Positions 3,877 to 31,370 of a stretch of 39,462 nucleotides of DNA are shown in pieces; position 1 is the first letter of the stretch; each line of letters starts with the position of its first letter. The translations under genes were made by a program, and so were the position numbers. The stretch lies in contig KZ538939.1 in NCBI GenBank assembly GCA_000934665.2, positions 1 through 39,462 on the forward strand. The letters are read 5' to 3'. Under the pieces are notes generated by a model. That model searched no databases. It was not told the DNA's origin and saw nothing but the letters and a program-made list of their open reading frames with translations. Source of the DNA: Catajapyx aquilonaris (lineage: Eukaryota).

Positions 3877-4521
3877 ATGGCTCCTCCTCCGACAAATCAG
3901 GGGCTGCTAGCGCTTGTAGTAATGCTAATAGTACTGGGCTTCATCATTGCCTATTGCTGCTGGGGTGCCTGTTGCCGTCTTCTGGGCCGACGAGGAGGCC
4001 TAGACGCAACTTCGACCTTCCCAGACCCTCCTCCGCTCGGGTTCAGTCAACCCGCCATAGTTCTTTTGCCATACGGCCGCATGCTGATGGTAGACGGACA
4101 GCTTCTGGACCAGCTATCCGAAGCTGACCTCCTAGCGCTCCTGGATCCTGCAAACGCTCCTCTCAGGCCCGATGGAGATGGCCGTTGGACTCGACGGCCC
4201 TCTTTCGCTTCTTCTGCTGCTGCTTTGAGCAAAGAAGACTCCGAGTCATCCGTGGGTCGCCTGGTACCCCCACCCTCCTACCAGGCTCTGTTTGGTGGTC
4301 CTCCACCATCCTACGAAGAGAGCCTGGCTCTGAGAAGAATGGGTGGTACCACTCCTCAGCTGACTAGTCTGGCGACAACACAACCTGCTAGAACAGCTGT
4401 CTTGCTGCTGACTCCAGCAGCTCCTGGACCTGTCATTCAAGGGGACATGCCGGGGAATAGGGTATTAAGCGCTAGTGCACCGGATCTGTGTCCGCAGAAT
4501 CTTCACGAGAGTATAGTGTAA
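3877..4521 (+). CDS. Single-pass membrane protein (~214 aa) with juxtamembrane Cys cluster, two PPxY motifs and C-terminal PDZ-binding motif (commissureless/WBP1/VOPP1-like architecture)
   Basis: Acceptor tttttttcag at 3871, ATG at 3877 (an upstream coding exon is possible); TM LLALVVMLIVLGFIIAY then CCWGACCR; PPPSYQ and PPPSYEE; ends HESIV*. Confidence 0.8.
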   Translation: MAPPPTNQGLLALVVMLIVLGFIIAYCCWGACCRLLGRRGGLDATSTFPDPPPLGFSQPAIVLLPYGRMLMVDGQLLDQLSEADLLALLDPANAPLRPDGDGRWTRRPSFASSAAALSKEDSESSVGRLVPPPSYQALFGGPPPSYEESLALRRMGGTTPQLTSLATTQPARTAVLLLTPAAPGPVIQGDMPGNRVLSASAPDLCPQNLHESIV

Positions 4522-6246
4522 AGTGGGTGGGGGACCTTGCCGGCCCAATGCCTGCACTTCTCACTGAATGTTCAAGGAAACACGGTTTTTTCAGTTCCAA
4601 TTTATTGTTTCCCCTCAGGGAGTCTCCACTTGAGTTGTATGTGATGCCTACAAGAGTAGGGAGTTAATGTCCGGAGACGTTTTTTCACTTCAAGGTTGTC
4701 CTATAAGCTGTGCAAAAATGGGGGTGCCGAGTAATTTAACAGGGTTGTTGCTGGGTATTGGATAATATGCAGGGTGTAGATTTCTGAATTTGTCTGAATT
4801 TTTGGAATCTAGATTACTTGGCATCCTTAAATGTATACCAATGACATATTCTGAATGGACACCAATCCGTGATAGTCTTAGAAAGTATCTATTTTACTGC
4901 ACAAGAAACGTCCATAAGTATCATCCGTGATGCCCTTTTATGTGCCAGTATTTATCAAATGTTTGCCTAAACGAACAAACCAAATCTTCCAGGGACAGCC
5001 TCATTTTGTGCACAACCAGTATAGTAACTATCCTATAGTACTGAGATGCCATGATGATGCAATAGTTTTTTTATGGAGGCAAATATGTCAGCTAAAATTC
5101 ACACGAAGTACGCGATTATCTGGTATGTAGGGCAGAGTCATTTTCATTCACGGTTTGAATTGTCACATCACGAATATTATCGCCGACTTTTGTAACAATG
5201 ACTGTAAGTCACTCTGTTGTTCTCATGCCCTTCTGTCATTTTTTATGTCACGCGCAGAGCACGCGCTCATTATAGCATCGCCTATATACACCACATGTCA
5301 CGTACGTTTGGCTCGAAGTGACGTCAGGCTAGAAACCAATAGATATTTTCAGAACGGATTTTATTTCCCTGTTGAGACGAGGCCATTTCCACATGTTACT
5401 TGCGCTCTAGTGGCACAAGAATTTGATTATGGGAATAGCGACCTGTGGTCTGAACCAAATATGATTTAGTTTTGCTCAAAGAAGTCTACGATGAAGCCTC
5501 ATGGCTCCACGAAGAAGATAATGGATGTTGAGTACAAACGAAACAGCGGGGATAAACGACAGAAATGTAGCCGACTTAGACATAATGATACGTACAGTCG
5601 AGAAAAGTACATGTAGAGCATAACTGATAGTCTAGGCACTAATTATGTTAGTATATTAGAACCAGCTGTATATGGAGGCTGAATACAAGCCATCCTATTC
5701 CCTCAACGCAATTTTACGTGCCTTTTATAATGAGGCGTCCATGCAGCCAGCCAGCCAGCCAGCCAGCCAGTCATTCAATAACGAGGGGGACTTGTTCATG
5801 ATTTCTGCCTTGAACCTTTTCTTCTCCCATTATTAAACACCTATTGCCCCATTCGCCCTGGGAGCTTGAATGCAACACAAGACATTGCTAAGTGCCTGCT
5901 GCTGCTGCTCTCCTCTGCTGATGCCCACTGGTCAAGTGGCCATCGTGCCTCTTGTGCGTACGTTCCTCTTCCTTTACTCTCATGTGATCCACACGCACAA
6001 CAAAGGAACTTGTCAGCAGCCTCCTACTGTCCCCCTCTCTCACCCACCTTTTCGGTTGCCGCCTATAATAATAATAATGATACCAAAGTGCTGTCAAACG
6101 GAACCATGCTAGGAAGATATGCAACGAACTCTTGTTTCATTCTTTATTGTTCCATGCTGATTGTTGTTGGGCCTGTCAGGCCCTTCTCCGAGGACAATTA
6201 AAATTTCCCATATCTACGAAGCTTAGTGTTGTTATTATTGAAATCC

Positions 6247-6598
6247 TTAAGCAAAAAATGACGTGTGCTGAGAGTCTGGGCGCGACTCGTACACAACCCA
6301 GAGGACTTTTCTAGGGGTTTCCGGACACACAGAATGCTTCGTTGTCTTGTGGTGTGTGTGTTGAAAGGACTGGTAAGTCTGGTCCCTCCCTCCTAGTGTG
6401 TCCAAATCGAGTCCCAGATTGAGCAATGAGGAATCTTCGCCTCCCAGTCCATCCAGCAATCCTCCTTGACCCACCTGTCATTACAAAAAAAATAATAGTT
6501 CAGTGACCACCATTCGAATCGAGTTGACTGATGGTAATAATATTATTTACCTGTATGCAGGCCAGGGAAGCAAAGAGCACGAGCGAAATCCAGGCCAT
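6247..6598 (-). CDS. Small secreted protein A, 91 aa, two exons (6598-6551, 6474-6247)
   Basis: MAWISLVLFASLACIQ|VGQG signal peptide; 76-bp phase-0 intron gtaaat...gacag; mature part GLLDGLGGEDSSLLNLGLDLD...HTSFFA*; minus-strand AATAAA at 6148-6143. Confidence 0.75.
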
Positions 6599-6910
6599 TC
6601 CTTCCTCCTATAGAGATGCACCCAATATGTGTAATGAGCTGTCACTCGTGCGTACTCTATTAATGCATGGTACTATTTCGACACGAAACTAGTAGGTGCC
6701 TTATCTACCACTGAGCTGACAATGTCGAAATAGATACGCCCCCATTGGGTCACAATGTTTGCACAAGAGTTCATCCCCATAAGGCAGGGAATGTGATGTG
6801 GAAGCTTGGAACTTGCAATGTCAGCACATTCCTGTCCTTTGCTTAGAACCTGTGCTGCTGTCGGCTTAATAAACCGTGCTCCTGTTGCTGCTTCTTGACA
6901 AGATCACACT
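6599..6910. promoter_or_regulatory. Putative compact bidirectional promoter between secreted proteins A and B
   Basis: 312 bp between divergent ATGs; AT-rich TATA-like ttaataaa (~6866-6873, +) and attaatag (~6664-6657, -) followed by an Inr-like tcatt. Confidence 0.45.
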
Positions 6911-7254
6911 ATGAAGCTGCTGACCATGGCTCTAGTGCTTCTCTGGATGTTGGTCCTTAGTGTTCAGGTAAGCAGTTTTTCTTCCAGTTGGGAACTATTG
7001 TTCTGAGAGTTGCGTTGCAGGGGATGTCTTTGGGAGGTGAACGGGAGAAGAGGCAGTTCGGAGGTCTACCTCTAGATGGGTTGGCTTCTGCTGCTGGAGG
7101 AGGGGGTGGTTTCCAGCACCAGCTTCAGCGCTTGTTGGCCACTCATTTTGACATCATCATGCTGGGATCTGCTCAGAAGAAACCAGGTGCAGACAAAGGT
7201 GTTGGTGACAATCAGGACGGGTCGCTTCCCTTACCTCCGGGAATACCATTTTGA
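6911..7254 (+). CDS. Small secreted prepropeptide B, 96 aa, two exons (6911-6967, 7021-7254)
   Basis: MKLLTMALVLLWMLVLSVQ|G signal peptide; 53-bp phase-0 intron gtaagc...ttgcag; propeptide ends in REKR followed by QFGGLPLDGL...PPGIPF*; AATAAA at 7310 and 7330. Confidence 0.82.
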
Positions 7255-8347
7255 TGTGCCAAAAAGTTGCCGCATAATATGTAATCGCATCCCATACCCG
7301 GACTTATGCAATAAATCATGTTATACGCCAATAAAAAAGTTGTGCGATCGTAATGTGGAATCATCCTTAATGACATATAGGGTGATAAAAAATGTAGGCT
7401 AGACAGAAAATTTCAAAATAATAATAATTGCAATATGCGTCGTCAGCTCTTGGCGTCGTAGACCATGACGGAGGATGGACAAACAGTGATAATCTGGAAT
7501 GGGCATATATGACTGTTTCATGCTGAACAAGGAAACGTCAAATCCTGTGCTGAAAGTGACCAAGTCGTGCTCCGCCAGTGCCAGGCATATCCGCACGTGT
7601 CAATGCAGGTTGTTGATGCTCCATATCATGCTGGTGCGCCTCTTACGTCAGCATACCCTTGTCACTTTGTGGCCGGTTATACTGCACGGTGCACCGTATC
7701 TTTGTTTGTGAGAGGTTTTCTTTCAAAGTTTCAACTGTAGAGGGTTTGTTACAGAAGACTCGGCGTTTCTTAAAAGGGCGACAACTCCAGAAACAAAATC
7801 AGGAATGAGATCGTAGTGCCTTGCCAAAGATATTGGAAATAACCTTGTTTTTAAAAACTCATAAAATTTCTTGGAATTACAGTAGCTAAACCATTGCGTG
7901 TAACATTTTTTTTCATTTTAATTGTGTCGCTTTTCTGTACCATACCATATATATTATGAACCGACAGTGAATCGATAGTGCAGTAAGTTCGCAAAAAATA
8001 AACTCCTCGCAACATGACTGTGTAGAATTATGTAGCCTACTGTATTACAACCGGGGCAATTATGTTTAGCAATCTGTGGTCTTAAGAAGTAGTATACAGC
8101 AGCGATGCCACGCAGACACACGCATAGGAAATGAAGGCCATTATCATCATCACCAGCAGCATCAGCATCAGCATCGCCCGCACGATCTACAGCCGCATAT
8201 TTGGTAAAACAACTAAAGGAAACAGGGAAAAAAGAATGCATTTTCTTTCTTATGTTGTATTCAAGAGCTGCAGTAGAACAGATTTAGTCAGCCACATCAA
8301 TAATTCCAGGCATAGTCATCATCATTATCGGATTCAGGCATTCTTAA

Positions 8348-9100
8348 CCCTTAACTAGTGTTATGGGGTCTTTTTTGACCCTAAGCTTACGAGAATTAAC
8401 CGTGTCAAGTAACTAATTATTAATCAAAAGCCAAATGCTATGTGTATTCCTCAAACACATCTTTGCCAAAGAGTTAATTTTTTTAATTGAGAGAAAAAAT
8501 TCAAGGCTCTCAAAAAGCAGATTCAATGAAGGTGGGGTGCATCAGCTGTACAATAGAGTACTATGGTGCTCAAATGGTTTTGGCCACTTTATCCTGGTCT
8601 TGAATCAACCCTTCACACACACACCTGCTCAACGTGAGGCATGTGCGAAGGGTTGCTTCTAGACCAGGATGAAGTGGCCAAAACAATTTGAGCTCCATAG
8701 TACATTTTTTAGGTGGGCCTAAGATACCTATACTTTTATCTACACTTTCGAAAATATTAATTGTAGATAATTTTATGTAGAAGTCATATGCTCATCATTT
8801 GCGACGTTCTACATAGAAAGCATATTTGGAAGTTCTTAGTGTTGTAGGTTGCTGCTGTGCTATCTATAATTATCGGATAATTTTACACATTCCAGTGTAT
8901 TGCAGTTTTTAATACTCAATCACTTTTCATATAAGTCTGTTTCATTATTTACACATTAAAAATCATGTTAGCTTCATTTACATGTCATTAAAAAGTTATC
9001 ACATGAATTGGAGATTAAATATAATTAAATTACCACCTGGGGTCAAAAAAGACCCCCTGACACTAGTTACGTTGCTCAGATCCATGACACTACTTGAAGG
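8348..9100. mobile_element. piggyBac-like non-autonomous element (MITE) flanked by TTAA
   Basis: TTAA at 8344-8347 and 9101-9104; left end cccttaactagtgttatggggtcttttttgaccc; right end has an internal inverted copy (9040-9069) plus terminal atgacactacttgaagg, the asymmetric end layout typical of piggyBac. Confidence 0.8.
8561..8700. mobile_element. Small TA-flanked MITE nested in the piggyBac-like element
   Basis: ~40-bp TIRs ctatggtgctcaaatggttttggccacttt / gaagtggccaaaacaatttgagctccatag, with TA on both sides. Confidence 0.75.
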
Positions 9101-10336
9101 TTAAAAACGCTGCAGAAGGTGCTCGAGGTGGTAGGGTCTTGACCCTCCTAGGTTTTGGAGTTGTTGGTTTTGGAGTCGTTGGTTCTGGTGTCGTTGGTTC
9201 TGGAGTAGTTGGTTCTGGAGTAGTTGGTTCTGGAGTAGTTGGTTCTGGAGTCGTTGGTTCTGGAGTCGTTGGTTCTGGAGTCGTTGGTTCTGGAGTCGTT
9301 GGTTCTGGAGTCGTTGGTTCTGGAGTCGTAGGTTCTGGAGTCGTTGGTTCTGGAGTCGTAGGTTCTGGAGTCGTTGGTTCTGGAGTCGTTGGTTCTGGTG
9401 TCGTTGGTTCTGGTGTCGTTGGTTCTGGTGTCGTTGGTTCTGGAGTCGTTGGTTCTGGAGTCGTTGGTTCTGGAGTCGTTGGTTCTGGAGTAGTTGGTTC
9501 TGGAGTCGTAGGTTCTGGTGTTGTTGGTTCTGGGGAAGTAGGAGGTCCCAACGGGCGAGGATGTTTTCTGCTGCTGTACCAACATCCTTCCGTCTGAAAG
9601 AGTAAATTCAGGAGTATTATATGAACATACTGCGTGTAAGTACCGGACAATATAATATTATGATAGTCTATGGTAGCCTATATACAGTATATTGGACAGT
9701 TGTATACATAATTTTTGCAATTTAGACTAATATTGTTGATCAATCTCTGACAAAGGGAGTACATTTTTACCCCTCCCCCTATTTTGTAATAATAGCTAAT
9801 TTAAGGGGGGGCAACAAAACTCATAGTGCCGTCAAAGTTAAATCAATGCATCTCAATATAATTATTTTGAAAATGGGTACGTCCTCAACTCATACAATAA
9901 TCTAGTGACCGCTACTGTGACGACCTTCCTCACACTATAGGCGACGGTAAGACTCGGCCCCGCCTTTCTCATTGTAATACCTCTTTGTGTACCGTACCTT
10001 TACTTTATAGTTGCTATTTTTGCCTGTTATTTTTCTACTTGCATTGCATTGGTTATTTTAAAAATGATGGGATCATAAAATGCACTTCCAGCCATTTACG
10101 TATGGCAATGTTTTCTGTTTATATACTACTAGACCATGTTACAAGTCATAAAGAAGCCCAATTTGGAGTATTGAAATGCATTAATCTACAATACGTATTT
10201 TGATATTACCATGAAATTTAAAGATAATAATTATAATAAAGGACATAATAATATATGGAGAGACACTTACCCGTGGCACAAATACGACTGCAATCAATAC
10301 GAGGATGAACCCCAGAAAGAAGTTGAACTGCTTCAT
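9090..10336 (-). CDS. Secreted mucin-like PEPTT-repeat protein, 189 aa, two exons (10336-10271, 9593-9090)
   Basis: MKQFNFFLGFILVLIAVVFVPR|TEG signal peptide; phase-0 intron gtaagt...ctttcag; ~24 PEPTT plus PKPTT repeats; variation between units is almost all at third codon positions of this frame. Confidence 0.85.
9151..9540. repeat. 15-bp coding minisatellite, ~26 units (ggttctggagtcgtt)
   Basis: Direct inspection; period 15. Confidence 0.95.
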
Positions 10337-11206
10337 GTCTGCCTCCTGTGTTGGTGCATCACACCTTGAAACCTACCTATTTATTCACTTACCAGCACCC
10401 TTACTTCACGCATTGGTACAATATTTGCTTACTAAATATGACTCTTTCAAAACAATGATATCAAGAGAAGGGAATGTCAAATCAGAACATTGATTTTTAT
10501 TTCATCACTGACCATTGCAGACGTGTAGGCTACGCGGTAGGACGTAAACGTATTACGAAAGAGGTTATTACCTCTTCCTATTACATTCACCCGCAAAACG
10601 CCACAGATGGTTGCAACTGTACTGGTTAGTTCACTGTGCTATATCATCACATCCTTACTGTTAAGTCTGAAACCAGCACGACGACTTTTTGCCTTGTTTC
10701 CGTAGAGCCTATAAAAAGCAATCGAACTGCTATAGTTAATGAGCTTTTCCTTGCAGATCTTATCCACGGAAGTTTGTATTCGGAAGTATGTATGATATAA
10801 TTACGAGTATGATGACTATAAAGTGTCAATTAGGGTAGGAAAAACTTTATATTATCTCTACTTTTTTTGTGCTTTTGACTTTTCGTTTACCTTCTATCAC
10901 AGCGAACTTGCTTACACCCAAATTAAGTATTCTAAGTGTCCAAAGCACTTATAAAAATCGTCACTTTGCTACCGAAAAAACGAATCTGTCTCCCTGAAAA
11001 TAAATAATTGAAAAGAACTTTAATGACAATCACTAAAGAACGGGCAATTAAGTTCCATGGCATTGTGTTACTGGTAACGTACATAAAATGTTAGAAATAA
11101 ACAACAAATGGTTAAGTCATCCGATGATACGGTGGAATTTTGGTGCTCAAGAAATACCGTGTAGTACTTTGACGGCAGTGGTGGAGCGGGGGGGGAGGGG
11201 GGGGGG

Positions 11207-11467
11207 NNNNNNNNNNNNNNNNNNNNNNNNNNNNNNNNNNNNNNNNNNNNNNNNNNNNNNNNNNNNNNNNNNNNNNNNNNNNNNNNNNNNNNNNNNNNNN
11301 NNNNNNNNNNNNNNNNNNNNNNNNNNNNNNNNNNNNNNNNNNNNNNNNNNNNNNNNNNNNNNNNNNNNNNNNNNNNNNNNNNNNNNNNNNNNNNNNNNNN
11401 NNNNNNNNNNNNNNNNNNNNNNNNNNNNNNNNNNNNNNNNNNNNNNNNNNNNNNNNNNNNNNNNNNN
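11207..11467. other. Assembly gap (N run) next to a poly-G tract, probably hiding part of the Hairless 5' end
   Basis: N characters. Confidence 0.95.
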
Positions 11468-13145: not shown

Positions 13146-13514
13146 TTTTTTCTTCTTTTTTCTTTCCCCCGTGATCGAGGACAGAGCTGGGGGGGTGGGG
13201 GGGGGGGGGGTGTGTGTGTGTGGAGCACCACCATTTTTCAATTTTTCTTATATATTTTTCTTCAAACTTCGTGCAAGGCAGAAAGGACATGAGGTAGAGA
13301 TGGGAATTTTTGGGGAGGAGACACAGGTGCAGGTTCAATGTCTGAAAATGGGTCATGTGCAGTCTCCCTGGAGGCTAGGTTGCCAGACACCTCCAAGGCG
13401 CAGGTCAGAGACCCTCCAACGAAATGGAACTCCCTGGTCGGGATCGAACCCAGGACCTTTCACTGAGCAAGCCGAGTCGTTACCAACTCGGCCAATACGG
13501 CCAACACGCCTCCC
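13146..13514 (-). mobile_element. tRNA-derived SINE (family 1)
   Basis: Minus-strand A box tggccgagttgg and B box ggttcgatcc; A-rich tail; TSD tgtcatgagatgt at 13133-13145 and 13517-13529; homologous to 33334-33684. Confidence 0.85.
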
Positions 13515-16121: not shown

Positions 16122-16825
16122 CGAGGGCTGTCTGGAAAGTAAGGTAAAACATTTTTTCCCTTGGGAAGTTTTAATAACAGAATAATACAAGTTACACAAA
16201 TGAGAAGATATAGTGAATGTCATTTCTCAATGTAATCCCTGAGTAAGTTCAAACACTTGTCCCAACATTTCAGCGAGAGTTCTATCCCCCCCTCATAAAA
16301 TTCTGGGTCACTTGAAAGTAGGCAGGTGATAATCTCTTCCTTCACCTCCTCATCACTAGGCAAACTGTCTTTCCAACAAGTGACCTTTCAGAGGGCGGAG
16401 AAGGGTGTGAGACGGGTGATCCCAGATTTCTCGCCTGTGGTACATCATGTCACGATAGAGACCAAGATGGACTCAGTGGGTTGGAACTTGGAAGAATCCT
16501 TCCTTTCACTCAAAAAATTTCAATTCTGCGAAGAAAGTCATGGCAATATAAGTCTTGACTTGGCCCCTTCTGACTTCTTTTTTTTCCCCCTCGGGAAAAC
16601 AGTTTGCCAGTGACAAAGATGTGTCTACTTTTGCAGGACCCGGAATTCTATGAGAGAGGGGATAGAACTCTTGCTGAAATGTTGGGACAAGTGTTTGAAC
16701 CAACTTGGAGAGTACATTGAGAAATGACATTCACTATATCCTTTCATATGTGTAACTTTCGTGCTTCTGTTGTTAAACCTTTCCAAAGTAAAAAATGTTT
16801 TACCTTACTTACCGGACACCCCTCA
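16122..16825. mobile_element. Mariner-derived non-autonomous element with long inverted arms
   Basis: TIR cgagggctgtctggaaagtaaggtaaaacatttt; relic SLDLAPSDFFFF (mariner YSPDLAPSD motif) near 16550-16590; C-terminal WDKCLN..G.YIEK* relic in both arms. Confidence 0.85.
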
Positions 16826-17327: not shown

Positions 17328-20300
17328 ATGAGCCTCTTCCCTCCCCACCAGGGAGCAGGAGGAGGTGGAGGTGGGCTGCCATCCTTGCCTGCCCCTTCTC
17401 TCCCTAACCCACCTGAGGATTCCTCCCCATCATCCTCATCTCCATCATCTTCCCCCACATCTTCTGCATCCCCATCTTCTCCCATCTCACATGACAGCAA
17501 AGGAGGGCGGAAGTTGGTTTTAAATGGCAGCCACACGCCGCCGCCTGCAACCTCACAGCAGTTTCTTCCTCCTCCACCAGTTACCCATGCTCACTCCAGT
17601 TCAGAGGTGACAAAAAGTGCCACCGTTTCTACCTCCAAGGGATCAGGTGGACGCCTCAAGTTCTTCATGGGTCAGTATACTCTTTCTAAGAGAGGCTTAT
17701 AAAAGGTGGATGTGAACATGTGGAAAATTTGATCATTGGAGCAGCAGGAAGAGAGAGCACAGTAGTAATGTGGTAGTGGTGGGGGTTGTAAATTGGGCAT
17801 GCATTCTGTGTAAGCTGTGACTGTCTGTGTAGCATTAAGGCGGCTACACACAGGCAGTTGCAGCCGCAGTTGGAGTCGGAGTTGGACTCCAACTGCAGTT
17901 GCAACCTGCCCGTGTGAAGCCACCTTTATGAATGGACTCCAAACTGAAGGTGAGTAATGCCTGTGTTCAACAGACATCAAATATAGCCTACACCAATTGG
18001 ACCTGACGAACTGATCATAGATTCCAGGAAGATACGCCCAAGAAATTGTCACTGTAAGAGTCACACATCAGATCCATAGCTGCATCAGTTTTCATCTCAT
18101 TACCAGTGTGACACCAGAGAAAGATGTTACAGAACAATGCCCTTGAGTGTGACATTTGACTGCAACCTGTTTCTTCAGTCCTAAGCTGCTGATAGGGAAG
18201 AATTCAATGCAGAGATGTGTCAGACTCCTGTGGTGACAATTCCTTGGGCCTCCTTTGCTGGGGTATGGAAATCAGTTAGCTGCAATTGGTGTTACTTTGA
18301 TGTATGTTAGACACAGGCATTCAGTTTGGGGTCAGTTTCATGTAAGTGAGGTGCACTTCTCCCAGTGAGGTGCACTTCTCCCAGTGAGGTGCACTTCTCC
18401 CAGTGAGACAACCTAATATGAGAGAAGTTTGTGCCATTTTGTAAACCTCATTTGGCTGTATTTTTGCAATAATTTGCACTTTGTTCAGCATCATTCTGCA
18501 TACACATTGTTTACACTTCTTTCACATCATTACACCAAAAGGACCAGTTATTACCTGTCACAATGCAGGGGAACCCTGCCAACCAATGACTTACACATCT
18601 GAAGCACATACATGAAACTCCCAATTGGAGGGACACTGGTGGTCAAGATGAAGGTGGAAGGTTAATTGTGTCACCTGCTGCACTTCACCACCCCACCCTT
18701 GATGGTGCCACATCATATGAAAATTATTTATGTCATAGGACAGCTTGGAAATACCTGGTCTTAAACTTTTATGCTGACACCGAGGTGTTCCTCAGTTCCT
18801 TCTGCAGAACACAAGAGTGCTACCGCATTTGCATTTGTGTCAACCTGCAGGGGGAGAGTAATGTAATTCAGAGTTTTGAGTTGGCATTGTCATAAGTAAA
18901 GATTTTTCAGTCTTCTATCAGGGAAAATGCCAGAAATATGTAGCTGTCTTAAAATTTTATGCAGTAAGGGAGATTGGGGTATTGTTGTAACAGGGTACGT
19001 TTGTAACATCGCCAATAATAAATATGTTTGGAAGGCCCTGAAGCTGAAACTCACACAGTACATGTGTCACTAGGATCTCTAAGCCAAGCAAAACTTCGGA
19101 TACTCCTTTTTTGTTTTTTGATTTTTTATATGAAAAAAAACCAAAATCAAAGTATGTTCCCAACTTTTTTGGGTGGCAGTATTTAAGTGATTTTGCAGGG
19201 GGGTAGAAGCGCTATTTAATTGCCCTTGGTATCACGAGAAAGGTTCCTTTAGTGGGGTCACAGCGACGGTATAGATGACCAAATCATGTGTACAGTAAAA
19301 AAGTAGTAAGCATATCTACAAGGCAACACACAATGGCGCTGGTTGTAACAACTTCCTTGGGGTCAGTTGTAACATGGTAAAATCATGAGAGAAAGGTCAA
19401 GTCTGTGTACAGATGTTACAGCTACATATCTCACAGGATATTGAGAGTAGAAATAGCTATTATTTTGTTCAATGAAGCCTCTTATAACCAGTTTGTTGAA
19501 AATTTATATGAATAAAAAATCAATTATCTTGTAATACATATATGCTGAGTAAATTCCAGTGTATCAAGAGGGCTGATTCATGGCGCGTATTTTTAAATTA
19601 AAAAAAGGTAACACATACAGAGATGACCTTTGCTGAATTTTGAAGATCCGGCGATTACAATTTTATCTGGCATATAGATGACGCCCATATAAAATAACCA
19701 TTGCACATTCGGAATCAGGATTTTTTTCCCGATTTTTGGGGGCCAACTTGTATTTTAAGTGGAGTATCCCTTTAACTACGAAACGGAGCCAAAAGCTAAT
19801 TGCACATCCCTATATTAGTTTTGCGAGTACTATCCATCTATCTGGTGATTATACGTGAGTTTCCCTTCACCCTGTATAGTGACCTTAGCCTTTCATGTCA
19901 TACACCCTCCAGACTTCATTGCATCATTGATTATCTCCTGTTGGAGAGAGGTTTATACTAATAATGTTATAATTGCTATTTGACAAGCAACTGTTGATAG
20001 GTGTCAAGGAATCAAAACGATGTAATGAATCGCTTAATTTTGTTTATTAAAATTTTTCCTTAGTGTGGGTGAAAATAGATTTATGCCACACAAAATTTGT
20101 ATATATTTTTGTGATACTCAGAATATGAACTGTGTTACAATAAATTTTTAAATTCCAGATGGTAAGATCATCCTGGAGCTTTCCCACAATCGTCAAGGAG
20201 AAAGAGCTGGCTGGGTCCCAGTGAGCAGCAAGAAGTATTGGATGTCCCACAAGGACACTCACTCACCTTCATCTCGAGGAAAAGGGGGTGGAAGTAGTGG

Positions 20301-21446: not shown

Positions 21447-24400
21447 AGGGGTATTACATAATGCTTGGGAATGAAAGCCAAGTAAAGAGCCTTCTGGGAA
21501 AAGGGAAAACATTGCAGGAAGGCTAGGTGTGTGCTTCCACCTTATAGTGGACTGCCTGGAACAGCAATGGAAATGCACCTTCCTGTCAACCACATCCATA
21601 CACTGTATCTGCCCTCCTCATTCTTCTTCTCCTTTCTATATATCTGTTTTCTCCCTGCCTGGCTTCCCCTCTGCCTCACATCTCTCCACTTTTCCTAGTT
21701 CTGGATCCTCAGGAACATTAGACGCGCAAAGTAAACAATGAATCATATTAATATCCTAATGATAATACAGCACTTGAGTAACAACACTGTGAGAGAAGTA
21801 TAACCAATGAACTCCAACAATAGCCACACCTGCAATTTTTGGAAATGTATTTTTGCAGTCTTGACTTTGCTGAGTCTCGGTATGTGATTTTTACAGATGA
21901 TTCTTCTGTGAGGTCATCTCCATGGCAGCGTGAGCGAAGGTGGAAGCAGCAGACTCCCAGGCATGGCATGGGCCACAAGATGGCATTCTCACTCAGGCTT
22001 CCACCACATAGACGAGGAGTCACCACATGCAGCACCATCAGCTGGCAACGTCAGGCCAGGCGGAAGCGACGGAGACCTTTCTCAAGCTCTCCCCCTGCCG
22101 AAAGTATGTGCAGCATTGGAAAGAGCAGGGTAAATGGAAGAAGAGGTTGCTTGGAGGAAGTGGTCCAAAGACTTCGGAGGACGGCCACCACTGGAAAGAG
22201 TGGAAGCACTAGCCTAGCCGCATTCCTCTCACCCCGGAAGCGCATCCTGAGAGAGCTGGAGTTGAGTCGGGCTGCTTCTCCAACCTCCCACTCCATACAC
22301 ACCCTTCTAGGGTCAGGAGGAGGAGGAGCATCTCAAAATGCTTCCCACCCACATAGGCACTACCCACCAAACTCTCCATCGCCTTTCCTGCGTGCTCTGC
22401 TCAAACCCCAGGTGTCACCGCCACCACCTCCACCTCCTCCGCCCCCACCCCCACCTCCAACTGCACCACTTCCACAGCAGTTCCTGCCATTCTTATCTCC
22501 CTTTGGAATCTTCCCACCTCCCCCCTCTCTCCCACCTCCATCCCTCACGTCCCAAGGTTCTAATGGACCTGTGTGGCTGCCGTATCCTTTCCCAGCATCC
22601 TTCCCTCCAACTCACCATCACCACCACCATCACCTTCCCATTCCACTTCCTCTCATTCCTCCTTCCTTTTGGAGACTGTCCCCTCCCTCTCCCACCAATT
22701 CTGCCCCCCTTACTGCCACCACTTCAGAAGTGCCACCCCACCAGCTCCGGTTGCCACCTGCCAGTGCGCACAAGGTTGCTAAGCCTCAGATGCCTTGCAC
22801 TCATGTCAGCGACTCAGGTAGGTTGCCTTGCCAACATATTTGTAATAGACCATCAAACGATTTCCATGCTGTATTACAGAAATTAACCTGCATTTTGCAA
22901 TAAAACATCACTTAGTTTATATGTATCAGTACAAGTAGATAGCAGCATGTGATGGGAGTGTTCACTCTGGCAGTTAGGTTAGTGTTTGTGTGGCTCTAGT
23001 GATGTCAGTATTAGGACAGGTTATCAGGAGGAAATCTCCCATTTTGTCAGATTACGCATTATGAATGCAGAATCAGAGAAAATCCCTAATTTGTTTTCAT
23101 ACTAAGCAATAAAAGCATGCTAAAATCATTACTCAGTAAGTAGGAGCATGGTACAGTGTTGGACATTAATCGAGTCATACTGCTAGCGACATATTCCGAA
23201 GCAGCAGAAGAATGAATCTTGCTGGCACGGCTTGCACTATTCGTATCTTCAATTCGTTCTTCTGCTAGCTTGTCGCTAGCAGTATGACTCGATTAATGCC
23301 CAACACTGTACCTAGGCAGCAGGTATTTCAATAGAAATGGGTGAAAGATTATGTGTTTATCCGCAATTGTAGCCTTGGTGTAACACTGTGCGCAAACTGC
23401 ATTTGCTTATTCCAGTGCAGGAGTAGCATGGAGCATGGCTTACCTACTATGTATTCATTTAGCCAATTTGTTATACAAGTGCAGCCCTGGTTGCATGCTC
23501 ATAATCAAGTGTGCAGAGCTGGTGTAAGGCTTGCTTACACTGTGATATCACTTGAACTACCCCTTAACTACACTGGTCGATAAATGAATACAGTAAAACC
23601 TCACTATAACGCTCTTCAAGGGACTGCCCAAAAGTAGAGTTATAAGCGGGATAGCGTTATATGTGGGAAAATTACCTTATGGAAATTATCAAGGGACCGG
23701 AAAAAGGAGGCGTTAAAAGCGGGAAAGCGGGAGCATTATATCGAGGTTTTACTGTATACCTCCTGAGAGTGCTGACCTTGGATTTTGTAAATGACACTTA
23801 AATATCAACATGGCATATCTACATCATGTCAATGTGTGTCCTGAAGGAACTGTTTCGATACTGGTATGCCAATTGCACAATTGCAGCTTGGCTTTGGCTA
23901 ATTACCATATCATTAGCCAACCTCCTACTGCTTGAACTTACAGTATAGTCATGTTTCAATACTCAAGCAAAGTTGATTACACTGACAGATCATTGATCCT
24001 ATGGCATACTCGCAACATTTGTTAGCCTCAGTATGGAGGTCCAATGTCATAGATCCTGTCACACCTGGCTGACCCTTGTAGATACCATTTTCAACACTTT
24101 TTAGGGATAGCAGGTAGAGGGCCACCAAGATGAAACCTAAGATGTAGGGCTGAAACTCCTTTTTTTGGAATTTTGGAAGTGTACTCGCTACCTTCCTGAA
24201 TTTTCAAAATATCATACAAGAACAGTAGTTTGAATGGAACAATACATATTTACCAGGTGGCATTCATGTTGAGTAGTTCATAATCGTGCTTCCGGACTGT
24301 ATGCATCGGGGACATGTCTTATGGGCCCCTTTACATTAAACCACTGCCAGCAAAATGTAAGTGCTGCCTGTCAATGAACGTGGAGATTGTCCATCAGCTA

Positions 24401-25822
24401 CAGCATGCAAGAAGTGACACGATGGTGACAAGTCTCCATACTGTTTGACAGGACGTGCGTATGTTTTACTAGCAGCAGCCTTGTGTAAATTGGACTTTAG
24501 ACTTGAACACCACCACCCCCAGCAGTTTATTTTTTTGCTAACCCCTCCGAAAATTCATCCCATCCAAATACAGCGTGATTCTCCCGAATGGAAACCCAAA
24601 CATTCCTCAATAACTTTTTCACTATGGAATGGTTCCTGATGATAATCGACATGTACTTACCTTGTATCATGCCAAACAAGGTCTGACTACAGAATATACC
24701 AAAAGTGGCCCCCTCCAGCATCCAAGAATTTTTTAATGCGAGTCTGCATATTGCCAAAGACTCCTACAGATGAGGCAGCGGGGATGGCATCAATCTCCCG
24801 CCCGCCGCCTGGCGTCAGGCATCTTTGAGAGCATCAATTGTTCGAGGGTTATTTTTGTGTTCACAGCCCTTCAACAAACTCATGAGAAAAAAAAAAAAAA
24901 CTCCCTTCATACCCCAAAACAAATTGGACTGTTCCCATGGCCTTGATGCTCTCAAAGACGTGATACGGCGGGAGATTGATGCCATCCCCGCCACCACATT
25001 AGCAGGAGTCTTAGGCAATATGCAGACTCGCATTTTAAAAAAAATAAAAATAAATGAATCTTGGATGCTGGAGGGGACCACTTTTGGTATATTCTTTAGT
25101 CAGACCTTGTTTGGCATGATACAAGGTAAGTACATGTCACTTTTCATCTGGAACCATATCATAGTTAAAAAGTTATTGAGGAATGTTTGGGTTTCCATTC
25201 ACCCTGTATAATACTATTAAAGTGTACAGTATTTCAGCATGTTGTTGTTCTAAATGCCACCAGGTCAATTTTCATGCAATGTTTTCATTACCTACACATT
25301 GATTGCACAGAAGCGAGTGTAGAATGACATACGAGTCTTGTTGAACTAGTTAATCCCTCACTTCTATTGTACATGATAATATCCCATGATATGGCCTTAT
25401 CGAGTTATCCATTTTTGTATGATCTATCTTTATTTAATGACTGCCCTGTTGACATATTTTGATTGTGGGAGGAAATGGGAGAACCACAAGACAACCCATA
25501 TGGACACACACAGAACCCAATGAAACTCTTTCCACATGAGGAATTCCTCTGTCCAACCCAGGGATCAAAGGGCTGGTTGCATGATTGATGGTAAACCTAG
25601 AACAAGTGGTTGTGCTATGGTATTCACGTAAGGTTAATCACTTGTTCGGGATGTACTATCAGTCATGCAACCAGCCCAGTTTACCTTTGTCCTCACAAGA
25701 AAATAAGAAATAAGTTATTGCAATTTCCTTGTGGCATAACTTTCCATCTATTTTGCATCTTTCCAGAAGAAGTTCCACTGAATCTGTCCAAGAATGGGAG
25801 TAGAAGAGAAGACTCATTATAG
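17328..25822 (+). CDS. H: Hairless, Notch-pathway Su(H)/CSL co-repressor adaptor, ~531 aa; exons 17328-17670, 20159-20434, 21897-22817, 25767-25822
   Basis: Spliced frame gives the Su(H)-binding domain GGRLKFFMDGKIILELSHNRQGERAGWVPV, conserved DDSSVRSSPWQRERRWKQ, Groucho-binding HSIHTLLG and CtBP-binding PLNLSK; all three introns GT-AG and phase 1; start codon uncertain. Confidence 0.95.
17836..17928. mobile_element. Short PIF/Harbinger-like palindromic MITE
   Basis: taaggcggctacacacaggcagttgc / gcaacctgcccgtgtgaagccaccttta with TAA/TTA flanks. Confidence 0.6.
18346..18407. repeat. 19-bp tandem repeat x3.3 (gtgaggtgcacttctccca)
   Basis: Three identical copies plus a partial. Confidence 0.9.
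20495..20897. mobile_element. Tc1/mariner-pogo type MITE, TA TSD
   Basis: TA-cagtaccctaaattaatggct...agccattaatgcagggtactg-TA. Confidence 0.8.
21378..21444. repeat. (ATT)n microsatellite, ~22 units
   Basis: Direct inspection. Confidence 0.95.
23154..23308. mobile_element. TA-flanked MITE with ~37-bp TIRs
   Basis: cagtgttggacattaatcgagtcatactgctagcgaca / tgtcgctagcagtatgactcgattaatgcccaacactg. Confidence 0.85.
23591..23754. mobile_element. pogo/Tigger-like MITE, TA TSD
   Basis: TA-cagtaaaacctc...gaggttttactg-TA. Confidence 0.85.
24571..25206. mobile_element. Tc1/mariner-superfamily fold-back element with ~250-bp inverted arms
   Basis: TA-cagcgtg...caccctg-TA; both arms carry a transposase C-terminal relic (PRTIDALKD.IRREIDAIP..TLAGVLGNMQTR). 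Confidence 0.85.
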
Positions 25823-26295: not shown

Positions 26296-29200
26296 TTACT
26301 TAAGTCCACCATGGGGGTGAAAACCACGTCGCTGTCTCGCCTTTGGTCGCCACCAGGTGCCTTTCTTGACGACCTTAACTTCAAGAGTATCCTCATCAAA
26401 GTACTGATTGCAGCGCTTCCAATCACGCCGGAGTTTTGGATCTTTTTTGCTGGTGTCAGGTGTGAGGTTCATCATGAGGCCTGCCTTCTGGGCCATGGCA
26501 ACCATTCTCTGCACACGTTTTTGCTGGCGCCTGCAAAGGCCAGTGATGCGGCGAGGAAGCATGCACCCATCCGTCCGCACAAATTGACTCAGGATCAGAA
26601 CATCCTGGAAAGTGAAAGAAAGTATATACTGTATTACCTCACTTAAAGCTGCAATAACCGAGGTAGATTTCCATAATCTTTTCCTTGTTAAATATTTTAG
26701 AATGTATTTCTTAGGTCGTATTAAAATAATGTTATGGTGACTAATGGACGAGTACAGGGCTGTGAGAATATGCAAGCTCCTCTGTTGCACAGTGCATCGA
26801 GTGTGACCAATCCCATATTCAGCCTGCTCCGAGATGGGAACCCTCCTACTCCATCACAAAGAATCAAGGCAAACTCCTTAAGTCCTTCATTTTGCTCAAT
26901 ACCTGGTCGCAGTTTTCACTGGTTCAATACTTCAGGCACTCTGGTATAGGCAGTTAATACGAATTACATTGTAATTATATTACTAATACTAATAAAGGGT
27001 TAATTAAGTGAAAACCTCGCCTCACACCAGCATACCTCACTTACACCAGCATGCCGGTCTAGCCACCAGATCATGCATTTCTAAAAACTGGTCGACCTCG
27101 ACTATACCGGCATGCACCTTCAAGTCAGGTAATATTCAAGATTATAATTATATTCATCCTACTTGAGGACCTATTTTACATTCTACAGCATGTTCCAGTA
27201 GAACTGTAGGTTAAGAAATATCACTTGTCATTATAACACTAATAAGACGCTGCATGGTAGGCCAGTGGCCTCGCAAGGGATTGACATGCAGTACTTGATC
27301 CAAAACAAGTCGAAAATGTAGAGGGAAGACATGTCAAGGGACCAACCGGTGATGAATTAGATGGCCAGAAACATGGCCTGACCATCAACACATGGAGCAA
27401 TACATCTGACGCCTCTTTGTAGGGAGATCCCCTGGCAGATGGACTTGCACGCCTTACAGTGGTTGCCTAGGGAGCAGGATATGGACATGATAATCACGTC
27501 TGCGAAAGAGGTGATCTCACTACAAAGAGGCATCGTATGTGTTGCTGCATGTGTCGAAGGTCAGGCCAATGACTCGGGTCATCTAACTCGTCACAAGTTG
27601 GTCCCTCGACATTTCTCCCCCCTACATTTTTGACTTGTTTGGGTCAACAAGTACGCTGACTGCCAGTTGACCTTCTAGTAAGATGCACCATACACTGCTG
27701 TATTGTTAATCTCTGACCTCCCCGAAGTATACAACTGCTGTTACACTACTTGTTCTGCAATTCTTGACAATGATAGGAAAGGAACCCTCAGAACCTGATT
27801 ACCCTCAACCTGTAACCTCCCATTAAGCGTGTGTTAAATGTTTCAAATTCTCACAATCAGCATTAAAAACAGCAATATTATTACTGTCTGTGGGAAATTT
27901 TTGAAACATTTGGAACCCTTCTCATTCGAACTTCTTACATTTCACTTTTGTCTCCTTTTACATTGGTTCACATTACGTCGCTGTGTTGCTGGAACCAATT
28001 ACCAGCGTAAAATGGGTGCTTCTTGTAACTGCATTTTTAAAAATATATCTCTGGATAAATCCCACTTCAGGTACCTATTTTGCAATTCTATCTTTCACAT
28101 TTCCAAGTCATTCAATAACACAACTTGTCCACCAAAAATCTTGATTGCAAAGTAATACACTCTTCTGGCATGCTTCTTACCTACAAAGTAGTATCAGATC
28201 AGAATTCACTGATTACTTGGCTACCTTGGAAGTAATGAGATGCGCTTGTAGGTGTAACAGCACACAATCCTAATGGGTTTGTTTGCCAAGTGGCATTGTC
28301 CTGTGTACATCAGAACTTGTATCACATTCAATTCTGTAACATGCATTAGGTCTTTTTGGCTATCCTGTGATGCTGACAAAAGCAAGCACTGTGGATGGAT
28401 CACAGGTGATAATAGTTAGCCGGCCTTGGTGGACTAGTGGTTAGCGCGCTCGCCTCTGGTCCCAAGGTTGTGGGTTCGAACCCGGCCAAGGTCGGTGACT
28501 TTTCTCCGGGTGGTAGAAAAGTGAGAGTGCGCCTTCCTTCGGAGGGGAAGTAAAGCTGTCGGTCCCGTGTGCTTGTGACATTGCGCGAGTGCACGTTAAA
28601 GATCCCCAGAGTGGCCAAATTTGCAGGAGGAGGACCACCCCCTGGCGTCGGTGTTGAGCCTTAGAGGCAGAAATAGGCCGACGTTAAGCCCCACTGAACA
28701 CAGGTGATAATAGTTGGTTTTTCCACTGTGAAAATTGCTGTGACAACTTTCATCACTATTATGAAATTTTTTACGGTTACTCAAAGCTCTTGGACACATC
28801 GAGGTGCCACCATTTCTGGTTGGGTGTCAGGAGCCACGGTGCATGTTCACTTATGCACCACCATTTTGCGATCACCAAGAAAACGTAACAGGTGTTCACA
28901 AAATTGCGTGGGATACACATTCAGACATACCCAGGACGATACCACTTGGCAAACTGACTCATTAGGATTGTGTGCAGTTACACCTACACGCATGGCTCGG
29001 TACTTCTCAAGGTAGCCAAGTAATCGGTGCGTTCCAAGAACTTGTTGATCCAAGGGGTATCTTATTTGACAGTACTACTCTTTGTTTCGAAAATCCAATT
29101 TAAAATTAAAATTCACTTGTGGCAAGGGCAGCTCACTGCATGGCCTCATACATACCACATTTTAGTGCAGATACACAGATAATTGCAATGGGTGCAGAGG

Positions 29201-29608
29201 TATTTAACCCACTTGCCCAGAAGTATTGTGAACATTTGGATTTATCTCTAGCTAAAATAACTAGTAGCCAATCTTCCCTGCACTAAATTACCGTATGTTT
29301 CACATCCAGGTTTAGCCGGCAGAGAGGGCAGGCACCATCATCGTGTGCAGTCTTAACCATGAACTCCTCTCGTGGAGATGACACCATCAGGCCCTTCACT
29401 TGGATGGCATCCCCATCTTCCTTGATCACAACTGTAACAAACACACAATTACAACAACCCAAAACAATTACCAACTCTGACAATACCCACTCTCTTTGAG
29501 GCGTTGGGTGGCCGAGAGGCTCAGTAGGCCTACCGGAGGCTGTCGCCAAACCTGCGCCAAAGTAGCCAGCGGCCTTCCTGACTGCCACAATTTCCTCACC
29601 ACTTGCAT
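26296..29608 (-). CDS. mRpS18A: Mitochondrial ribosomal protein S18A (mL66), 188 aa; exons 29608-29491, 29431-29292, 26604-26296
   Basis: Arg-rich, acid-free targeting peptide MQVVRKLWQSGRPLATLAQVWRQ; CPLCRLNLDVKHT|DVLILSQFVRTDGCMLPRRITGLCRRQQKR..MAQKAGL S18 domain; phase-compatible GT-AG introns; minus-strand AATAAA at 26269-26264. Confidence 0.95.
27291..27655. mobile_element. Palindromic MITE, same family as 38358-38714
   Basis: Inverted arms aaaatgtagagggaagacatgtcaagggaccaac / gttggtccctcgacatttctcccccctacatttt; shared core gtggttgcctagggagcaggatatg. Confidence 0.7.
28418..28698 (+). mobile_element. tRNA-derived SINE (family 3) with Deu/Nin-like central domain, in mRpS18A intron
   Basis: A box tggactagtgg, B box gttcgaaccc; perfect 17-bp TSD cacaggtgataatagtt at 28401-28417 and 28699-28715. 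Confidence 0.9.
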
Positions 29609-31370
29609 ACTTCGATTCTGGACAACCTAGGAGCGGCTGGATGTGGGCTGGATATTCCAGCTTCCATTCATACGGGCACAGCCACGCGTGAGAGTAGGAA
29701 CCGTGGTACAGTAACCGTGGTCTGAAAAATTTAGTAGATAGTGTAACTTTCCCCCGCCGCTGTTTACAGCACCACAGGTATTCTTAATATATTTTAAATA
29801 TTATCTATTGTTAAATATATCATGGACTGTCGCGGGCTGTTGTAAGTACATTTACTTAGCATTCTACAAAAAAAACATCGTTATCCTTTATTAATAGAGG
29901 GCGCCGAGGATGCTACACCTAATCGGACCCAATGACCGTGGACCCAATGAACGATGGCAGGAGGGAATTAAAATTTCTGAGCGGGAGATTCAGCGGACCT
30001 AGCGAAAACCATGCCCTGACGCAGGGCCGGATTTATAGGGGGGCATAGGGGGCAAGTGCCCTATGGCAAAAAGTTTAATATGCTTTATTTTATTATTTAA
30101 AATAAAAAATTTACTGACGAACCTCCAGCTCCAGGCTGAAATGCTTCATCGTAATAAGCAATTCCTCATCGACAAAGGGAGTCAATTATTAAAGTGTCGG
30201 GAGCACCCGCTTTCCCATGGTCGTGAATGATCCTTAGTGGCGAAATGTTTGAAATAGCCGGAAATAGCATTAAAAATTAGAAGCTCTTGGTACATTAAAT
30301 AGAAGTTTAAAGAGAGCAGCCTGGCATTGCTAAACACCCTCTCCCCTTATCAGGGTGCTAAACCGTCTTAAGACATCATGTACGTACTTAACCATAAGGG
30401 CACAAGCATACCTAAGTCAACATGTCAACCGCATTGCAACGCGGGGTCCCAAATTCTGTGAATGCAAATATGTCTCAAAGTAATACTGACCAGTAGGTGA
30501 AAAAGAAAAGGGAGACAGAGGGGGTCTGAGGGACCCCCTGGGTCAAAAGAAAATGCCAGAGAAGAAAACGGTTAAAAGAAAACACAAGACGACCACAACA
30601 AAACAAGCAGTCGGTGTCGTAAACGACCCAACCTGAGAGGCCACGGCCCCCAGGGAGACCAAGCAGGCGCAGGGCGCGGCCCACAAGGAACCCCGGGGGC
30701 GGCACCCAAACTAAAAGGATAAAAACTCTAAAACCTAATCCTCCACACTCCGTGCCCCGGGCCTCCACACTCACTTCAACTAATTCAGCAGCCTGTGGAA
30801 GGTGGTGTCTAAAGGCTGGCAAAGGGACCCAGTTTTCTGAAATCATCACAGTTGTAAAAGGTGGCATATTGTTCCCTACCTGGAAACACTATTAAATAGA
30901 TTTCCATATTTATTTGGCCACTTCAAGAGTAGGCATTTACAGATTATACATCAACTCCCATTTGCCTGTTAATGACACACCAGCCCCTGGAACTTGAATT
31001 GCTCACAACTCCCAAACTAAGGCTCATTTTAATATACTGTGGTTAGTTGGAACTTTTCTCATGAATAACAATATTTCCTATTGAATGAAACAGGCCTTTA
31101 TAAATCAGGCTCAAGCAGTGCACACCCTTCCCTTGTAGGGGTTAAGACTGTCAGTTACATAGTTTGACCCATTGGCCCCTGAGGTCAATGAAGTTCCTTT
31201 TTTGCCAACTAGATTCAAAGTTTTTGTTAAAAAGATGTTGCTATTCTACCAAGTAATATTGGCTGGTAGATTTTTAATCCTTATTTTTTGGCAATGCACG
31301 GATAATCCGCACCCGTATAATCCAGAGTACAGTGTATAATATGATGTTTCTTGGACATGAGGAGATGATA

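Follow-up and report, generated by a model that had tools for sequence, protein, structure and literature searches.

Three small predicted secreted-protein genes with a generic exon layout, two of them spliced in transcript contigs, at an arthropod locus

Three two-exon gene models, here called g1, g2 and g3, were confirmed in the window (the whole stretch of 39,462 nucleotides that was analyzed), each with a single phase-0 GT..AG intron (Table 1). A sequence-only reading of this DNA had proposed the three models with their positions and exon sizes. All were found where it had placed them, and two of the three introns, those of g1 and g2, are backed by spliced contigs. As that reading also held, the first exons are signal-peptide-like, with a mean Kyte-Doolittle value of 1.7-1.95 and sites fitting the -3/-1 rule at most 3 residues from each intron. 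The products would accordingly be of the secreted type, translation and secretion of all three being predictions from the gene models. Of the window's 96 stop-to-stop frames of at least 75 codons, 82 were put through Pfam, which returned Ribosomal_S18 alone; the other 14 coincide in part with the three genes, with the repeat array or with a longer frame already listed. A gene for a PPxY membrane protein lies at 3878-4521. Across the whole window Rfam gave no matches and ARAGORN no tRNAs.

Table 1. Coordinates of the genes, contigs and repeats at the locus. A slash marks the splice junction.
Feature	Position	Strand	Description
Gene g1	6247-6598	-	two exons
g1 coding exon 1	6551-6598	-	16 codons, hydrophobic, signal-like, ends CIQ; within X1 contig record 1
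g1 intron	6475-6550	-	76 nt, phase 0, GTAAAT..ACAG; precisely skipped by X1 contig
g1 coding exon 2	6247-6474	-	75 codons + TAA, starts VGQG; Gly/Leu/Asp-rich then His-rich, one Cys
Spliced X1 contig carrying g1 (record 1)	5600-6700	-	record of 1927 nt, extends below 5600
Uncovered gap between g1 and g2 contigs	6701-6868		168 bp, presumed bidirectional promoter
X1 contig carrying g2 (record 2)	6869-7283
Gene g2	6911-7254	+	two exons
g2 coding exon 1	6911-6967	+	19 codons, signal-like, ends SVQ; inside X1 contig record 2; caught by strict scan
g2 intron	6968-7020	+	53 nt, phase 0, GTAAGC..GCAG; precisely skipped by X1 contig
g2 coding exon 2	7021-7254	+	77 codons + TGA, 22% Gly
MITE-like insertion	8352-9069		30-nt terminal inverted repeats; ends about 20 nt 3' of g3 stop
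Gene g3	9090-10336	-	two exons
g3 coding exon 2	9090-9593	-	167 codons + TAG, starts TEG
15-bp tandem array encoding PEPTT	9151-9533	-	25.5 copies, 95% matches
g3 predicted intron	9594-10270	-	677 nt, phase 0, GTAAGT..TTCAG
g3 coding exon 1	10271-10336	-	22 codons, 17-residue hydrophobic core, ends VPR; donor CGG/GTAAGT; in strict and relaxed scans

Contigs of the one public run found to contain the locus (X1) have exactly the g1 and g2 introns removed. The g1 contig joins 6472/6549, skipping 76 nt that read CT..AC on the plus strand, and with the cut at +2 this is the predicted intron exactly. The g2 contig joins 6964/7018, skipping 53 nt with GT..AG ends, and with the cut at +3 it too matches the prediction. 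We therefore take g1 and g2 to be real spliced transcripts. The run is not on record as RNA and has no recorded tissue; its exact GT..AG skips and patchy cover, limited to the two contig spans in Table 1 with none in the gap between them, suggest that it is RNA-derived. The part of contig record 1 beyond g1 is a long 3' UTR or else stems from merging with the transcript of a convergent neighbor.

The two transcribed genes lie head to head. With 312 bp between their ATGs and 168 bp between their contigs, it is probable that both use one bidirectional promoter. Small inverted repeats occur in or near the spacer, for example at 6673-6683 / 6723-6733. A bacterial promoter and terminator scan of the spacer, a type of scan unsuited to an animal genome, returned nothing. 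A TAATAAA at about 6867 was ruled out as a TATA box for g2, as the contig already begins at 6869.

The product of g1 would most likely be a peptide of about 75-78 residues that is disordered for the most part, mildly acidic and contains His. Its better cleavage sites by the -3/-1 rule fall after residue 13 or 14, and an AF2 single-sequence model has no secondary structure (pLDDT 58). The proposal that the locus encodes processed peptides did not carry over to this gene. It has no R-x-K/R-R site and no KR or KK pair, and its sole basic pair, R-K at residues 71-72, is not read as a putative processing site.

The proposal fits g2, in which R-E-K-R at precursor residues 27-30 is compatible with proteolytic processing. 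A second basic site, K-K, lies at residues 72-73, giving the layout of a convertase precursor: a signal-like peptide, then basic sites flanking a peptide. The gene most likely encodes a 96-residue pre-pro-peptide that would lose its signal peptide near residue 17-20 (the better -3/-1 sites are after residue 17 or 20). A furin-type convertase would then cut after R-E-K-R to release a Gly-rich peptide of about 66 residues with an N-terminal Gln, one short helix and a possible second cut at K-K. The helix is predicted at exon-2 residues 30-47 (pLDDT 76 for that block, 61 overall, in an AF2 single-sequence model). Neither an amidation signal nor a Cys framework was found in g2, Gln preceding the K-K and the exon-2 product having no Cys.

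How far the first exons by themselves support the models was judged from scans for signal-type exons. The strict pattern (ATG, hydrophobic core, GTRAG donor), run over both strands of the whole window, gave three matches that represent two distinct exons, those of g2 and g3, against 1.15 +/- 1.03 in 100 Markov simulations. With a count this near the simulated one, the first exons alone are not beyond chance. Support for the models comes instead from the in-phase junction to an open exon in all three and from the spliced contigs of g1 and g2. A relaxed scan of the 39-kb window returned six matches, two being g1 and g3 and the other four unconvincing. Each intron had been described as lying just before the predicted cleavage site. 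The proximity stands, with suitable sites at most 3 residues away; the exact spot is only approximate, Q or R at -1 being poor under the -3/-1 rule.

The mucin that had been read into this set is g3. Exon 2 encodes a head of 20 residues, one of them Cys, 24 exact PEPTT units along with PKPTT and PKP, and finally a basic tail of 22 residues; there are 54 Thr and 59 Pro in its 167 residues, 70% are Ser, Thr or Pro, and the pI is 4.35. The minus-strand frame of this exon contains no Met ahead of the acceptor, so an upstream exon is needed. The signal region there has a -3/-1 site after residue 25, and its core, at 17 residues, has the length to act as a signal anchor. The likeliest product of g3 is a mucin-like rod, (PEPTT)24, that would be secreted and heavily O-glycosylated and would have neither cysteine-rich nor chitin-binding end domains. 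As a named repeat, PEPTT was not found among the matches listed in a full-text literature search. The neighboring MITE-like insertion carries an inner 62-nt foldback (8558-8619 / 8642-8703).

Might g3 instead be no gene at all, its reading frame being a 15-bp minisatellite that is open in most frames, joined by chance to a signal-like ORF upstream? The array can be read without a stop in five of the six frames, a MITE borders the 3' end, the strict exon pattern arises about once per window by chance, and the g3 model is a prediction from sequence. On the other side, the repeat period is a multiple of three, all 24 core units are PEPTT, and all 13 variant bases fall at third positions and are silent in that frame. 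The variation is equally silent in a plus-strand frame reading GSGVV, so the synonymous pattern alone does not pick the strand. The g3 frame also runs about 20 codons past the array on both sides before ending in a stop, and the donor, the acceptor (both consensus) and the phase all agree. At about 1.15 strict matches per 79 kb simulated, only about 0.015 are expected in the 1 kb upstream of exon 2 on that strand, making a chance signal-like exon so close by unlikely. Over 9051-9145, the part at g3 that was compared with the X1 contigs, there is no cover, which carries no weight either way. We consider the non-gene reading unlikely, and regard g3 as a probable mucin gene whose expression and glycosylation are predicted from the gene model.

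The sequence-only reading recognized none of the three products, and database searches bore this out. Pfam found no families for g1, g2 or g3 at E values up to 1. No credible relative of g1 or g2 appeared in any search of protein libraries, the ESM Atlas or metagenome contigs: the ESM Atlas gave no usable match for either, and 598 and 588 pattern matches in the metagenome contigs yielded none that was confirmed. For g2, no orthologue was found in any insect proteome of the library searched. A single PDB-sequence match to g2 (E 6.1) is noise. The sole match of an exhaustive phmmer search with g2 (P0001, E 4.9e-5) is a protein of 577 residues built of near-identical repeats, with three short matched stretches, and was judged spurious. 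As a taxon control, the mL66/MRPS18A exon of the window found 261 proteins, and the named ones in the best 120 were all from insects, at 66-79% identity. With the control gene reaching only this level, near kin must be missing from the library, and the lack of relatives is weak evidence.

This bears on another reading, in which a bidirectional promoter gives rise to g1, and perhaps to g2, as a young or functionless transcript (a de novo ORF or lncRNA) whose frame is not under selection as a secreted peptide, at least so far. Such an origin would agree with the empty searches and with the disorder predicted for both products. It would also suit the form of the g1 transcript, in which a 91-codon frame, not long for a contig of at least 1.9 kb, sits within the first 500 nt behind a leader containing a two-codon upstream ORF; g1 also lacks a basic n-region. 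Yet the empty searches count for little in a library from which the species itself and its near relatives are absent. Each frame uses the first substantial ATG as its start, with a purine in position -3, and in both genes a hydrophobic signal-like segment sits exactly on its own exon. Of the 362 nt in its contig, the 96-codon g2 frame takes up 291 (80%), which supports g2 being coding. We find an untranslated or unselected status for these transcripts rather improbable.

It is also conceivable that g1 and g2 are diverged paralogues left by an ancient inverted duplication, a two-member family of fast-evolving peptides. They are head to head, similar in size (91 and 96 codons) and share a phase-0 CAG/G boundary after the signal peptide, and a weak ungapped BLASTP match of 30 residues with 12 identities (LGGE ... 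FQH; E 0.031) at comparable positions could be a remnant of an old duplication. The corresponding Smith-Waterman score of 36, however, was reached by 338 of 5000 composition-preserving shuffles of the mature parts (7%) and by 547 of 5000 of the full precursors (11%). No DNA similarity between the two was detected in exons, introns or flanks, and no paralogues occur in the window; in a tblastn search of the window with g1, the g2 match lies amid noise at E 6.7. The CAG/G boundary is itself the splice consensus. Common ancestry of g1 and g2 thus seems quite improbable.

Nor do the data favor a gland-secretion cassette of seminal, accessory, salivary, egg-coat or immune type, possibly under common regulation and combining a mucin with processed peptides, as the sequence-only reading had suggested. 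Three genes of signal-peptide type do lie inside 4.1 kb, with no other convincing gene of the type in the relaxed scan of the 39-kb window; spliced contigs of g1 and g2 come from the same run, a convertase site is present in g2, and g3 resembles a mucin. Against this, there is no significant protein or DNA similarity among the three: the blastn matches were only 8-16 nt long, with E values of at least 0.3, and the non-repeat parts of g3 score at the shuffle mean against g1 and g2. A common promoter would not include g3: the head-to-head arrangement is confined to g1 and g2, and g3 lies tail to tail with g2 across 1.8 kb that includes the MITE, its start being 3.4 kb from the region that g1 and g2 share. 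Co-expression would be conjecture for a set in which g3 is a predicted gene, and the exon plan is generic (PMC1626468). That the three genes are related or act as a unit is unsupported, and we give the cassette little credence.

We consider it reasonably probable, on balance, that g1, g2 and g3 are lineage-restricted and independent of one another, that they encode small secreted proteins, and that they make up neither one family nor a demonstrated functional unit; the arthropod genome in which they lie looks insect-like. Our verdict is of ordinary lineage-restricted secreted-protein genes. Its value is foremost for annotation: two short spliced genes missed by ORF-based tracks, g1 and g2, are real and expressed, and a third, g3, is probable. 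Arthropod genomes commonly encode small orphan secreted peptides and simple mucins, which often underlie reproduction, immunity or gland secretions; this makes the three genes reasonable candidates for peptidomics. Existing knowledge of such genes is unchanged, the seeming common design being the ordinary layout of a secreted-protein gene.

That layout can be compared with published gene architecture. Animal secreted-protein genes are known, as a general property, to carry an intron next to the signal-peptide cleavage site (Nielsen & Wernersson 2006, PMC1626468), so the shared exon plan loses its force as a sign of kinship. The g1 and g2 boundaries are like the proto-splice site CAG/G of that source, whereas the excess it reports, and the commonest phase at such introns, is phase 1, and g1, g2 and g3 are all phase 0. 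We regard this agreement in phase as a mildly unusual coincidence. Phase 0 and a position within 3 residues of a -3/-1 site are common to all three genes and are not specific to a family. The Q/G look of two boundaries is simply the CAG/G splice consensus. A signal exon followed by a phase-0 intron and a single mature exon is the usual layout of small secreted-protein genes, reflecting that consensus at a Gly-rich cleavage region and not shared descent. The architecture is reportedly also treated by Tordai & Patthy and by Vibranovski et al.

Orphan and de novo genes can arise at bidirectional promoters. Like these, the g1/g2 pair is arranged head to head around a short common upstream region, with short products predicted to be disordered and no detectable homologues. 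It is a long shot that the two form an unannotated divergent pair of young genes born at one such promoter, with g2 already having the leader, R-x-K-R and N-terminal Gln of a processed signaling or immune peptide. If true, g2 would represent a new family of arthropod peptides, observed close to the point at which it arose. Precursors of arthropod neuropeptides, hormones and immune peptides are processed by furin/PC-type convertases. Unlike them, g2 has no Gly before the basic pair and hence no amidation signal, no Cys pairs, a peptide that is about neutral and not cationic, no Pfam family and no insect orthologue found; like them, it combines a signal peptide with a short acidic pro-segment and with R-x-K-R followed by a Gln that could cyclise, and it has an internal K-K. 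Mucin-type secreted proteins of insects with Pro/Thr/Ser repeats include the Drosophila Sgs glue proteins and the 'Muc' genes. From these g3 differs in having neither cysteine-rich end domains nor a chitin-binding (peritrophin) domain, its mature part containing one Cys and matching no Pfam family. It resembles them in its hydrophobic N-terminal leader and in its long, perfect Thr/Pro-rich tandem repeat (70% S/T/P), the unit of which is a multiple of 3 nt.

The three two-exon gene models for likely secreted proteins (g1, g2 and g3) proposed by the sequence-only reading were borne out exactly when we read 5800-10800 and located the exon boundaries by script (table). All three introns are GT..AG and in phase 0, with donors CAG/GTAAAT in g1, CAG/GTAAGC in g2 and CGG/GTAAGT in g3, and a purine occupies position -3 of every ATG. 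Contigs from X1, the one public run found to contain this stretch and available as contigs, were placed on 5600-9145, a region containing the g1 and g2 junctions and ending short of the 15-bp array in g3. A 1927-nt contig covers 6700-6549 and 6472-5600, skipping 76 nt (CT..AC on the + strand, cut +2), and a 362-nt contig covers 6869-6964 and 7018-7283, skipping 53 nt (GT..AG, cut +3). Both skips are the predicted introns base for base, so the g1 and g2 introns are real. Because X1 cover is patchy (zero at 6701-6868 and at 7385-8098) and the two GT..AG skips are clean, we infer that the run, whose kind is not on record, is RNA-derived. The g1 contig extends about 900 nt further, below 5600; this part would be a long 3' UTR, or else the transcript of a convergent neighbor joined to it by unstranded merging. 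Convergent with g1, and perhaps overlapping its 3' UTR, is a single open exon following a ttttcag acceptor; its short product has one hydrophobic segment, a Cys cluster and two PPPSY motifs, and no Pfam match.

Coordinates of the genes and other elements
Feature	Position	Strand	Description
g1	exon 1 6551-6598; intron 6475-6550; exon 2 6247-6474	-	16 codons; 76 nt; 75 codons + stop
g2	exon 1 6911-6967; intron 6968-7020; exon 2 7021-7254	+	19 codons; 53 nt; 77 codons + stop
g3	exon 1 10271-10336; predicted intron 9594-10270; exon 2 9090-9593	-	22 codons; 677 nt; 167 codons + stop
15-bp tandem array	9151-9533		25.5 copies
MITE-like element	8352-8381 / 9040-9069		30-nt terminal inverted repeats; between g2 and g3
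Convergent exon	3878-4521	+	
Mitochondrial ribosomal protein exons	26299-26853; 29286-29783	-	mL66 / MRPS18A
Pro-rich open frame	21824-22903	+	359 codons; poly-Pro run, His run
Foldbacks	8558-8703; 17833-17930; 23150-23312; 38132-38216; 27295-27647 and 38388-38687		85-360 bp; last two related to each other
Dispersed repeat	13227-13494; 33391-33672		two copies, ~280 bp, 79% alike
Inverted-repeat pairs	34607-34865 / 35011-35271; 24586-24802 / 24967-25200; 16123-16324 / 16622-16824		closely spaced, 190-260 bp, 84-93% identity
Runs of N	11207-11467; 34136-34146		assembly gaps or masked stretches

The first exons are hydrophobic (mean Kyte-Doolittle 1.7-1.95), and the -3/-1 rule places the likeliest cleavage after residue 13/14 in g1, 17 or 20 in g2 and 25 in g3. 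The introns, said to lie just before the predicted cleavage site, are within 3 residues of it in all three genes, not exactly at it. Furin-type sites follow the consensus R-x-K/R-R. The g2 product, 22% Gly and about neutral, has a fitting R-E-K-R at precursor residues 27-30 with Gln next, K-K at 72-73 and one helix predicted at exon-2 residues 30-47 (single-sequence AF2, pLDDT 61). The g1 product lacks an R-x-K/R-R site; it contains a His-rich stretch, has a mildly acidic pI of 5.9 and is predicted to be unstructured (AF2, pLDDT 58). The g3 product, 70% S/T/P with a pI of 4.35, has a single Cys, lacks a hydrophobic tail and is predicted to be a simple secreted mucin-like rod.

In weighing whether g3 is a gene or an open minisatellite, an open frame across its array is no evidence of coding, since five of the six frames are open there. 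All 24 core units read PEPTT, and the variant bases (13 of 13) are third-position and silent. A caution is that on the + strand the frame reading GSGVV varies just as little, since the two frames share their third positions; it lacks both a Met and a matching leader. The PEPTT frame extends past the array on both sides, by 20 and 22 codons, and closes with a stop. Since it contains no Met ahead of the acceptor, it needs a leader exon. Within the window only g2 and g3 match the strict signal-exon pattern, which arises by chance 1.15 +/- 1.03 times per simulated window, with about 0.015 expected in the 1 kb relevant to g3. As modeled from sequence, g3 is quite probably a real gene.

The products had also been called unrecognized, and this held: none of the three has a Pfam family, and neither g1 nor g2 had a credible library match. 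A word-indexed search of 5.8 billion proteins gave 0 matches for each, the ESM Atlas held nothing usable and metagenome contigs no confirmed match for either, and PDB sequences gave only noise with g2 (E 6.1). The single match of g2 in an exhaustive phmmer search of 1.84 billion representatives, a 577-residue repetitive protein aligned in three short stretches, was judged spurious. As a taxon control we used the first-listed mitochondrial ribosomal protein exon (Pfam Ribosomal_S18, E 9.6e-17), which found 261 proteins; among the best 120 every named one is from an insect, with many orders represented, identities of 66-79% and no value above that. The window therefore belongs to an insect-like arthropod, and the library lacks the proteome of this source and of its close kin. 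The absence of relatives thus implies no more than that nothing can be recognized across the distance between insect orders, as expected for short secreted peptides. The second exon's frame ends in a CPLCR..LDVK motif, which we take to be typical of the N-terminal part of the mL66 / MRPS18A family. The Pro-rich frame has no Pfam match and is possibly a low-complexity coding exon.

Genes g1 and g2 lie head to head with 312 bp between their ATGs. The spacer holds small inverted repeats, 168 bp between the two contigs have no X1 cover, and one bidirectional promoter may plausibly serve both genes. The g3 gene faces g2 tail to tail at a distance of 1.8 kb and has its start 3.4 kb from this spacer, so nothing ties it to the pair. 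The MITE-like element stops about 20 nt past the g3 stop codon. Many palindromic (foldback) elements occur; short X1 contigs on 8581-8705 (90-95% likeness, loose ends on both sides) indicate that the foldback there recurs elsewhere, transcribed within other RNAs. The inverted-repeat pairs are probably ends of transposable elements, and the dispersed repeat has, from its translations, the look of a tRNA-derived SINE. ARAGORN found no tRNA.

Sequence comparison did not establish kinship among the three genes. Between the loci blastn gave matches of 8-16 nt only, and tblastn of the products found no further copies in the window. A relaxed scan for a leader exon plus an in-phase open exon returned six matches (g1, g3 and four unconvincing ones), passing over g2 owing to its pyrimidine-tract filter. 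A very old duplication could conceivably underlie g1 and g2, whose mature parts align by BLASTP over 30 residues with 12 identities (E 0.031), but composition-preserving shuffles also reach their Smith-Waterman score (338 of 5000 for mature parts, 547 of 5000 for full precursors). The proposed co-regulated gland cassette has nothing beyond proximity in its favor. The locus is best read as three secreted-protein genes that are independent and lineage-restricted: g1 and g2, as a bidirectional pair, would encode small peptides, one of them predicted to be convertase-processed, and g3 would be a separate simple mucin. They are fresh examples of well-known gene kinds and not surprising, but they are useful in annotation and make candidates for peptidomics.

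With three genes only, two of which (g1 and g2) end exon 1 in consensus CAG/G, we see no signal in the phase-0 coincidence. Introns at the signal-peptide cleavage region are a general feature of animal secreted-protein genes (PMC1626468). The explanations given there are that Gly-rich cleavage regions match the proto-splice site, or that exons were shuffled, and the excess described is of phase 1 introns. Like those genes, g1, g2 and g3 have their introns in this place, and phase 0 in all three is slightly off that phase-1 norm.
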